DNA from: Trichodesmium sp. MAG_R03
GTDB taxonomy: Bacteria > Cyanobacteriota > Cyanobacteriia > Cyanobacteriales > Microcoleaceae
Direction of reading: 5' to 3'
Length of the DNA: 64,000 bases
NCBI GenBank assembly: GCA_023356535.1
Contig: JAKQYF010000002.1
Coordinates: forward strand, 712-64,711
The position numbers were made by a program. Of the stretch, positions 1 to 3,000 are shown in pieces. Position 1 is the stretch's first letter. Every line of letters begins with the position of its first letter.

Positions 1-3000
1 TTGAGATTAATTTTATTATTAGTATCTATTACCAAAGTTTCAGTTTCTATTAATCTATCACCACATTCTTGTTGCTGTTTCTCAACTTTTTTCATCAACC
101 AGGATGGTATACCCATAGTTGCTGTTTGATAAAGTCTTTGAAATTCACGGTCAAAATGAGCTGCTACTGTGGAATTTTCTATTATCAATAAAGTTTCATC
201 ATTGTTTTTATTAGCTGCTTTTGTCCAATTCTGAGAACCAGTAATTACAATCGAATTATCAATAACTCCAAATTTGTGATGGAGGCAATCGCCAGGGGGT
301 AAGTTAGGTAAGCCTACTGTAGATATAGGTTTTTTCCAAATGCGATTATTAGTTTCATATTTACATTTATTTGCCAAAGCAATTCCCATCATATCTAATC
401 CTTCACTATAGTAACGATAGGCAAAACTAGGGTCAATTAAACCTTGAATTAAGACTCCTTGTAGAGATTTATTTTCTAGGGTATTAACTAATAATTGTTC
501 TGAAAATACAAATAGGGATAAATTAATAGATGTTTGTGCTTTTTCTAATGTTTTATTAATTAAACCATTCACACTTTTTTGCCAAGATTGACTATTAGAA
601 GTAGGAGAAAATTGTACTGCAACTTTTGTATCACCAACCAATACTTGCCGTGTACCTCTAAATGGTTTTTTGACGCCAAATTTACTATCTGGTTGACCTC
701 CAGGGCCATCTCCCCATAAGAGATTAAATTCTTTTGTGAATAGTTCAGCTAATTCAAAACTTTCTATTTTTAAAAGATTATTAGCATTTCCTCGACTCAG
801 GGTTTCCGAAAAATCCCCATGAATACCACTGGTAGTAAAATTAGCGGAGGTTATAATGATAGTTTGACCATCCACAACTACAAATTTATGGTGCATCAGG
901 CCACTACCCTTAGAACCATCAGCAGTATCATCAATCAAGGGAACTCCTGAATTACTTAAAATTATTAGAGCATCCCTCAGATTAATTTCGTCTTGACTAA
1001 TATCCCCATCTATGTTAACGTCAATAAACTTAAAAATTTCATGGTAGCGATCGCGTTCCTGTTCAGGCAATTGAGCCACTTCAGATGGACTTAAGCTTTC
1101 CCAGGGACGATTGTAGATATTTTCAATAATAACTCGCACTTTGACCCCAGCTTGATACCTTTCAGCTAAGGCTTGGGCAATAGCTGGTAAACGTAATTCT
1201 TGAACTGCCACATATACAGTAGAATTAGCATTAGCAATAGTATTAACAATTATTTCTTCAAGATTGTCTCCTAGTCTGTTTTGCTGGCGTAGGACTTCAG
1301 TGTAGCTTGAAGCTTGAGACTGATTGAAGTAAGATTTAATTAGAGAGTCTTGTGGTAATGGAGATAGAGGAGAAACTAACTGCTGAGATTTATTCAGACA
1401 AGCAGTTAGGCTCAAAGTAAATAGTAAAAAATAGCCAAATCGCAATTGAATAGAAGAAAATAGCACTGGTATTATTGACATCATCCCCGGCCTAAAGGCA
1501 CTGGGTAACAACCGAGCCTTAGCCCCTCGGCGGGTTGACATTTCACAGGCTGTTGCTACTTTGGCAGTAGTCTTATGCTGACCTCCATGCCCGTTTTTTG
1601 TCTCGGATTGCCCACCCGCGACTAATATATTTCTTGTGAACTTGTGAACTCAAAAGCATGATAACATAACCTGTGAAAAAAAATCAACTAAAAAGTCGCC
1701 CGCTTATGGGCGAGGCTTTAAACGCAATTTTTCGGTAAAGTCAATCACCTGTTAGTTCATTTAAACAAAAATTGATGATGAGTAAATCTAGAGTAATTTA
1801 GCTAGGACTTACGCTTCGCCTGGGTAAGTCCTATTAGCGATAGGTTTCCTGAAAAAGTATTATGTACTGTAGCTTAAACATTTATTAAAATTAATTTGAT
1901 TGAAATTTAAGCAAAAAAGAATTTTTCGTCTCTAGCATAATAGCCGATAATTTAAAGTTATGGTTAACAGGACTTACTAAAATACCAAGAATGCACAGCT
2001 ATTTGGTTTTTTTCGTGCTGTCTGACTGTATGGCTGAATGACCATTCAACCATACTAGATACGTTGTTTCTGCCTAAGTCCTAAAAATTTAATCTGCCTG
2101 CGATTAGTTGGTAACATATATACAGGACTTACGCAACGGCACTATTTGTAGTGGCAATATCTTGAAAATTACAAATTTTTGCACCATGTATAGCGTTACT
2201 GCCTAAGTCCTGATATATTCAAAAAAAACAACTATAGCAATCTTATTTTATTTGTGTCAAAAATCTTGCTGCATTTTGGGAATAGGTTTGGAGTATTGGT
2301 TAATGGGTAAGAGTTTCGGAGTTTATTTCTAGTTTTTGAATTGTTACACCCTATTTGGGATTGCTAAAAAAAATAACTAAAAAGTCGCCCTTCTAGGACG
2401 AGGCTTTAAACCCAATTTTTCGGTAAAGATGGAAAGTTATACCTTTCAGTGAGAGAATAGTTTTGTCTTAACTTTGATGCTCAAAACGACTGCAATGAAA
2501 ATGAAGCGATAAATAGGATGTAGTGAAAAAGTCTTTTTAAGGAGGGAGTAAGCAGGGAAAATGCATCTAAATTCTGGAAGCTTTTACCGTTAAGCTTTAT
2601 AGGAGTAATGAGTATAAATACTCTGCAAGCCTGAAATTCTTGCCCTATCAGAACTTTAAGATAAGGGTTGTTCTAAAGATGTAACTGGACTTTGAAATTT
2701 TTCACACCGAAAATAGCTCTAAACCCAGTAGTAGCAAGGGAAATACCTGAAAGAACTAAAAATAGCTAAAGCCTAGGTATAGCCATGAGCGCTCACATAT
2801 TTACATACTACTGTTATCTCAAATTGTAGTATAATATTTCTAATATATTTTTATATTACATTTGCAATAATTTGTATTATGTAAACATGCCAGCGCACGT
2901 TGCTATATATCAAGAGAAAGGTTGATTCAAGGTAAAAATATTACTGTATAAAGTTTTGACCCTATTTTCAACCTATTTTTCCAAAAGTCCAGGTAAGGAT

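Follow-up and report, generated by a model that had tools for sequence, protein, structure and literature searches.

Near one end of a 64,000-nucleotide (nt) stretch of Trichodesmium sp. MAG_R03 DNA (contig JAKQYF010000002.1, positions 712 to 64,711; hereafter the window), a small transposable element lies immediately in front of a gene for a putative competence lipoprotein, which raises the question of whether this gene now depends on the element for its expression. All coordinates are window positions, and features are on the minus strand unless stated otherwise. The element is almost certainly a gene-less derivative of an IS1341-type transposon of the IS200/IS605 insertion sequence (IS) family, similar to the palindrome-associated transposable elements (PATEs), which has entered a TTAC in the leader of the gene, 8 nt before its GTG start codon. 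Taken jointly, this identity and a takeover of the gene's transcription by the element make up the reading that is favoured here with moderate confidence. The narrower proposal that the element's promoter is a material source of the gene's mRNA is held more tentatively, at slightly short of an even chance.

All features named in the original prediction were recovered at their stated positions, and the ends of the element could be placed exactly. The repeated unit runs from 1738 to 1475 and consists of TTAC followed by the 260-nt element, which terminates in ..GATGATGTCAA with TCAA at 1478–1475 (terminal sequence of the right end on the minus strand: ..GGGGATGATGTCAA). The GTG named there as start candidate was likewise found in place, separated from the right end by positions 1474–1467. 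A blastn search with these 264 nt against the genome of origin (G000, a draft of 5.84 Mb in 486 contigs, 93% complete) returned 137 full-length copies at 82–92% identity together with about 150 partial matches. With the 137 copies in register, the TCAA end positions are kept in 131–137 of them, no target-site duplication is present, and the flanking bases are variable, with random base use in the right flank. The bases before TTAC vary as well, except for a preference for T (82 of 137), and intact elements in the same-genus relative G002 also follow TTAC. IS608 has the same two motifs, TTAC and TCAA. The combination of a fixed TTAC on the 5' side, a TCAA end and no target duplication is thus the signature of an IS200/IS605 insertion, so that the proposed assignment to a miniature of this family is upheld by the copy number, by the IS605-type ends and by a parent element that could be traced.

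In at least eight loci of the same genome, about 1.1 kb separates family positions 1–99 from 103–264. What lies between these ends is a tnpB in decay, in which RuvC motifs, a zinc ribbon and a ..DENAARNILVAGG tail can be recognised. Intact copies of the parent are present in G002, one of which encodes a 413-residue protein with HTH_OrfB_IS605, OrfB_IS605 and Cas12f1-like TNB domains. The left-end part of the window copy matches the left end of both the roughly 1.4-kb tnpB-bearing copies and the intact elements of G002, and the C-terminus of the G002 protein (..NILVAGGQSETLNGHGGKHETTAKVAAACEMSTRRGATAR..) corresponds nearly residue for residue to the open frame in the window (..NILVAGGQSETKNGHGGQHKTTAKVATACEMSTRRGAKAR..). 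This frame had been described as the tail of tnpB, which the comparison bears out; it is the frame of the downstream gene, closed by TGA at 1652–1650 and, as predicted, open from 1649 into the gene. Relative to intact elements, the miniature family carries a 1-nt deletion that removes the tnpB stop (TAG in CCTTTAGG), which explains why the tail frame continues beyond the right end. Set against the long copies, the miniature reads as a deletion derivative of a tnpB-only element of about 1.4 kb, in which the left end became fused to the final ~50 codons of tnpB together with the right end. As in IS1341-type TnpB/omegaRNA elements (ISDra2 and IS608 relatives; PMC8612924), the parent has a TnpB with HTH, OrfB and zinc-ribbon parts and an omegaRNA, the guide RNA of TnpB, whose sequence overlaps both the 3' end of tnpB and the right end. 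Unlike those elements, the window copy keeps only about the last 50 tnpB codons and has the stop-removing deletion.

The family is not young. Its copies lie 3–17% from their consensus (window copy 5%, rank 28 of 137), so that the burst that produced them is not a recent one. Only G000, G011 and G003 hold the full miniature form in abundance; in other genomes of the genus the long form is found. As a separate observation, the right-end 25-mer GCCTTTAGGCCGGGGAGGATGTCAA has exact matches in many filamentous cyanobacteria, namely assemblies of Okeania, Trichodesmium, Spirulina, Caldora, Symploca and Dapis (loci L082–L161), and also, among Proteobacteria and other phyla, in assemblies of Methylophaga, Xenorhabdus, Azotobacter, Azoarcus, Vicinamibacterales and Udaeobacter. 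This spread points to a very widespread TnpB/omegaRNA clade, or to contamination.

Orthologs of the downstream gene were found in all 41 related genomes, and the 5' regions of 15 of them were aligned. Each of the 15 has an empty site (consensus ..ATTGACTTTGC|TAATATCAGTGCTATTTTC..; in G003 ..TTGACTTTAC|TAATATCAGTG.., with TTAC present). Since these relatives lack the element and share the upstream sequence, the insertion is a lineage-specific event that followed the split from the sequenced relatives. The original prediction had regarded relatives of exactly this kind as evidence against a dependence of the gene on the element. Such relatives do exist, but their existence does not by itself refute a present-day dependence. 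A peculiarity of the closest relative, G011, may be mentioned here: a stretch of exactly 22 nt between two CAG triplets, which includes the insertion site, is missing from its locus (L032, about 1470–1500; TAACAG|...|TGCT). The gap may have been left behind when the element was lost imprecisely, or it may be a deletion of independent origin.

The gene behind the insertion encodes a lipoprotein signal with a ..LTAC lipobox, two HKD/phospholipase D (PLD) domains and a C-terminal ComEA helix-hairpin-helix. The domain assignments are based on matches to PLDc_2 (1e-40) and HHH_3 (4e-20) in Pfam, on NucT-like matches and on NCBIfam TIGR00426 (ComEA helix-hairpin-helix; 54.4 bits at a cut-off of 53.1). 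The product fits a ComEA/PLD-nuclease-like protein with a putative role in competence, and it is consistent with the type named ComA in cyanobacteria. The GTG proposed as its start turned out to be the native one: most relatives also have GTG at this place, while G004 has ATG and G022 has TTG. Indels in the spacer ahead of the start have lengths that are not multiples of three (-13 nt in G001 and G009, -22 nt in G011). A TTG just upstream in the reconstructed empty site (..TGA TTG ACT TTA C|TA..) was considered as native start, which would have made the insertion an intracoding one. It was rejected because the spacer has these 13- and 22-nt indels while the GTG position varies among start codons.

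An insertion at this place might also have silenced or crippled the gene, leaving a pseudogene in the making. The start codon has been cut off from its old leader and now stands behind a structured RNA, the start region pairs with an internal segment in the single-sequence fold, and decayed genes and IS relics abound in the genome. Against such a fate, which is considered quite improbable, stand the intact frame of 545 codons and the substitution pattern of the gene. With changes polarised by five outgroups, the G000 branch shows 10 synonymous and 9 non-synonymous codon changes, and on these 19 substitutions the ratio of non-synonymous to synonymous rates (dN/dS) is about 0.26, like that of the sister lineage G011 (0.25). 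Under neutrality, so few non-synonymous changes on the G000 branch have a probability of 0.003. By this test the gene is still in use and under purifying selection. Moreover, the dS of the branch (~0.028) is close to the private divergence of the element copy (~3%; ~8 changes and a duplication in 257 nt), and selection has therefore probably maintained the gene through most of the element's residence in front of it.

The right end of the element had been predicted to carry a structured RNA of the omegaRNA type, and a conserved fold with compensatory changes across 11 genomes agrees with this. In an alignment of 22 right ends from these genomes (71–100% identity), the RNAalifold consensus comprises 36 pairs in 8 helices, and 96.6% of the cells are paired. 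Compensatory change is seen at 11 of the 36 pairs, compared with a mean of 4.3 in shuffled alignments, none of 500 of which reached the observed value; a control in which the 3' partners were slid by 1–3 columns gave 1–4 compensatory pairs. Helix 1 joins AUAUU (1628–1624) to GAUGU (1482–1478) at the extreme right end, and the right-end hairpin, about 10 nt short of the element end, is helix 8. The scaffold thus delimited (~1628–1475, ~155 nt) starts about 25 nt downstream of the predicted transcription start, and its fold is as expected for an omegaRNA scaffold. RNAalifold gave nothing useful on the 137 paralogous copies, since these differ mainly by private decay. A search of Rfam 15 at E<=1 over window positions 1–6000 returned no family for the element and one chance match to a miRNA elsewhere.

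Gene-less minimal IS200/IS605 elements of the PATE-like kind that encode omegaRNAs are known from Geobacillus stearothermophilus (Meers et al. 2023, PMC10055086), and OMEGA systems include stand-alone omegaRNAs that are reported to act in trans with compatible effectors (PMC10691335). The family described here resembles them in having no protein gene, IS605-type ends, a TTAC target like a transposon-adjacent motif, a TCAA end and many copies, in retaining the TnpB guide-RNA scaffold and, presumably, in being mobilised in trans by a Y1 TnpA. It differs from them in that 137 full copies persist while all cognate tnpB genes found in the assembly are pseudogenes, and in that the tnpB promoter is fused almost directly to the scaffold.

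The element at this locus might accordingly be read as a working stand-alone omegaRNA. Its 3' guide of ~16–20 nt would then be the leader and coding start of the gene, and a TnpB supplied in trans would either cut the empty TTAC site after excision, which would serve homing and retention, or bind the leader, which would affect the gene. The conserved scaffold fold speaks for this, as do the precedents for action in trans cited above, the intact Y1 tnpA genes of the genome (PF01797 matches with intact frames at C351, C473 and C167, which may recognise the miniature ends) and the miniature-forming deletion, which puts the tnpB promoter within ~25 nt of the first scaffold helix. The effector, however, appears to be missing. 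Among more than 100 tnpB remnants in the 486 contigs of the 93% complete assembly, no intact cognate tnpB was found: every match to the G002 TnpB has stop codons, with 2 stops over residues 58–376 in the best match and 5–20 in most. The sole intact TnpB-like frame (412 residues, C15) was tried as the cognate protein and has no match to the cognate TnpB at E<=1e-20. Long open reading frames (ORFs) beside right-end fragments at C257 and C234 were tried as well, and neither is TnpB-like by eye. In addition, the 3–17% divergence marks an old burst, and the family departs from elements with an intact tnpB through its 1-nt deletion and through an A.G mismatch that lies in the last helix. This alternative is therefore rated very improbable. 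Any working omegaRNA in this genome is unlikely, because an intact cognate TnpB is lacking from the assembly, and the omegaRNA module is most likely a leftover there, as every cognate tnpB found is a pseudogene. The earlier suggestion of a tnpB-less omegaRNA thus stands as regards origin, given the conserved scaffold, but finds no intact partner gene in the assembly. In the same way, the claim that the first ~20 nt of the gene form the guide is correct by position, but this is an automatic outcome of the place of insertion and no sign of regulation. The 20-mer and the 16-mer at the guide position are unique in the genome and, by the known logic of TnpB systems, such a guide would target only the empty TTAC site and not the occupied locus.

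The left end supplies the components that could redirect transcription. The gene-facing promoter named in the original prediction was recovered by a consensus scan, with TTGATT at 1687–1682, a spacer of 18 nt, TATCAT at 1663–1658 and TG at 1666–1665. It corresponds to the tnpB promoter of the element: both hexamers are kept 18 nt apart, with differing spacers, in two diverged intact elements of G002, in which the tnpB ATG follows ~27–30 nt further on. Upstream of it lies a subterminal hairpin (-13.8 kcal/mol, z = -1.9) with a T-run that is 98% conserved across the 137 copies. As DNA, this hairpin is presumed to be the recognition hairpin of TnpA and, as RNA, to resemble an intrinsic terminator for transcripts arriving from upstream. 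Beuzon, Marques and Casadesus reportedly found in 1999 that the left-end hairpin of IS200 stops most incoming transcription. The arrangement here is alike, with a GC-rich left-end hairpin and T-run upstream of the element's own promoter in the same orientation; its terminator activity is predicted.

By analogy with the IS200 left-end terminator, transcripts from the old promoter of the gene would be stopped at least partly at the left-end hairpin. Transcription would restart at the tnpB promoter of the element, the mRNA of the gene would largely start near 1651 and, after a leader of ~25 nt, it would carry the omegaRNA scaffold as a structured leader. Insertions of IS elements or MITEs (miniature transposable elements with inverted repeats) can give adjacent genes a promoter or a leader, as do IS elements with outward promoters and the Correia elements of Neisseria. 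MITEs have been reviewed (PMC10969869). The present locus is similar in that a small element lies just upstream of a start codon with a gene-facing promoter-like site and a structured leader RNA. It differs in that the structured leader is an omegaRNA scaffold instead of an inverted-repeat hairpin, and the role of the promoter is a predicted one. In the T. erythraeum IMS101 primary transcriptome, 7% of the non-coding starts drive transposase pseudogenes and IS elements (PMC4143802), which makes transcription from such relics plausible in the Trichodesmium group.

Several observations weigh against a takeover of transcription. The promoter matches the consensus at only 9 of 12 positions. Whereas its -35 hexamer is conserved in the miniature family, conservation is lowest in the -10 region, which has a mean column identity of 71% and is split into a TATCAT/TATGAT group of ~60% of the copies, to which the window copy belongs, and a CTTCTT group of ~35%. 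With such a variable -10, promoter activity is not fixed across the family. Folded as a single sequence, the leader does not exceed shuffled sequences in stability (z = 0.01), so that the case for the scaffold rests on covariation. Purifying selection on the gene implies that it is expressed, but not which promoter drives it. An orientation bias of the family, by contrast, speaks for an effect of the element on its neighbours, although the ORF and gene calls behind it are crude. A gene start lies ahead of the right end in 47 cases and a gene end in 71 (P = 0.034), compared with 65 and 63 for the left ends, which have no such bias. This weak bias fits an outward-reading right end that disturbs downstream genes and is selected against. 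Given this bias, the copy retained at comA would be an exception rather than the rule. On the same calls, none of the 137 copies except that of the window has a real gene start directly at its right end. One other copy with a frame leaving its right end (C8:5477) was discarded as a chance open frame without a gene.

The modest promoter match and the poorly maintained -10 would equally suit an inert passenger. In that case the gene's transcripts would still come from the old promoter, upstream of 1738, and would include the element as 264 additional nt of 5' untranslated region, while the element's own promoter would be weak or silent. It also fits that none of the private changes of the window copy touches or improves the main promoter, and that with 137 copies one beside a gene start is expected by chance, the window copy being the only one found at a real gene. 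On the other hand, the left-end hairpin and T-run sit between any upstream promoter and the gene, and inspection by eye revealed no convincing conserved promoter in the upstream block shared by the relatives. An inert passenger is thus a possible but rather unlikely explanation, and the takeover by the element's promoter remains the favoured reading. Among the private changes of the copy are an 8-nt tandem duplication and a T>G change, which jointly give rise to a further but weaker promoter-like site, TTGAGT(1653)-18-TATATT(1624), that is probably due to chance. An antisense promoter-like site, TTGAAT-18-TATTAT with TG, is located at 1446–1475 on the plus strand, within the gene's first codons and directed back into the element; it is probably a chance occurrence, too.

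If the gene's mRNA starts within the element, its translation would most likely still begin at the GTG. The original prediction had pointed to three in-frame ATGs, and these are all borne by the element. The ATGTCAA at the right end is a family feature (117 of 137 copies), and the second right-end ATG arises from a G>T change present in only 2 of 137. In the consensus fold, ATG 1541 lies inside helix 3, and ATG 1481 together with part of ATG 1484 lies inside helix 1. The GTG is located in the unpaired flank and is for this reason favoured as the start in use. Starts at ATG 1484 or 1481 would add 6–7 residues, and a start at ATG 1541 would add 25, ahead of an intact lipoprotein signal; any of the three would only lengthen the n-region of the signal peptide. 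The same arrangement, with element start codons in helices 1 and 3 and the GTG in the 'guide', can be taken a step further. The miniature would then have been co-opted as promoter and leader of a DNA-uptake gene, with the scaffold as a cis-regulatory module in which trans binding of a TnpB-family protein or folding of the scaffold gates translation. Such a role is judged highly improbable.

The features of the insertion locus are compiled in Table 1, together with a second repeat family of the window.

Table 1. Positions of the element, its parts, the downstream gene and further repeats within the window.
Feature	Position	Strand	Basis
TTAC target site/transposon-adjacent motif, directly 5' of the left end	1735..1738	-	T 135, T 134, A 135, C 136 of 137 copies
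Left-end part (family positions 5-~100): subterminal hairpin, T-run, tnpB promoter, short leader	1634..1734	-	
Left-end subterminal hairpin, followed by CTTTTTAGTT (1695-1686)	1696..1713	-	terminator-like in consensus scan
Sigma-70-like promoter TTGATT-18-TATCAT with TG, gene-facing; predicted start near 1651	1658..1687	-	
Copy-specific 8-nt tandem duplication, GTTCACAA x2	1649-1642 + 1641-1634	-	sequence compared with family consensus
Right-end part: last ~50 tnpB codons (relic) overlapping omegaRNA-type scaffold, TCAA end	1475..1633	-	TnpB tail identity and consensus fold
Element-borne in-frame ATGs	1541-1539, 1484-1482, 1481-1479	-	
Flank that would be the omegaRNA guide (TAATACCAGTGCTATTTTCT), holds the native GTG	1455..1474	-	position only
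Native start GTG of the PLD/ComEA-like lipoprotein gene	1464..1466	-	position conserved among relatives
5' 1466 nt of the gene (545 aa in total; extends beyond the left edge of the window)	1..1466	-	Pfam, NCBIfam
AGGACTTAC/GTAAGTCCT repeats	2106-2215, 7164-7283, 9269-9307, 11332-11447, 14969-15011, 45916-46023, 53447-53546, 60899-60975		

Further traces of related elements are present in the window. Two additional left-end-only copies, at 2375–2428 (family positions 1–~60) and 43614–43716 (1–99), have the same orientation as the copy at 1738 and no matching right end nearby; they are either solo left ends or the left ends of rearranged copies. A match to the TnpB zinc ribbon (PF07282) in a 164-residue open frame at 52546–52737 (G000:C112:53257-53448, minus strand) is another tnpB relic and is unlinked to the ends of the miniature. 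The repeats bounded by inverted AGGACTTAC / GTAAGTCCT ends (families D3, D4, D7 and I2–I20) are dispersed and look like a different MITE; several of them lie in the long intergenic stretch upstream of the miniature insertion. Finally, two 95-nt direct repeats with 96% identity, 116 nt apart from start to start, are found at 62341–62551 (family D5).

The type of element is already known, and the miniature is a well-documented further case, which fills in details of a known phenomenon without opening up a new one. What is added is a very large family of guide-RNA-bearing miniatures (137 copies) that has outlived its nuclease genes in a cyanobacterium of the Trichodesmium/Okeania type, a clean comparison of occupied and empty sites at a conserved gene, and a documented scaffold fold. 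If the scaffold did act as a cis-regulatory module, expression of a competence gene would be coupled to the state of the transposons in the genome. If the element's promoter does drive the gene, a TnpB-derived mini-transposon would here have rewired a conserved DNA-uptake gene; the locus would be a clean natural example of this, with the empty sites of 15 relatives at hand for comparison, and would indicate that omegaRNA scaffolds can become mRNA leaders.

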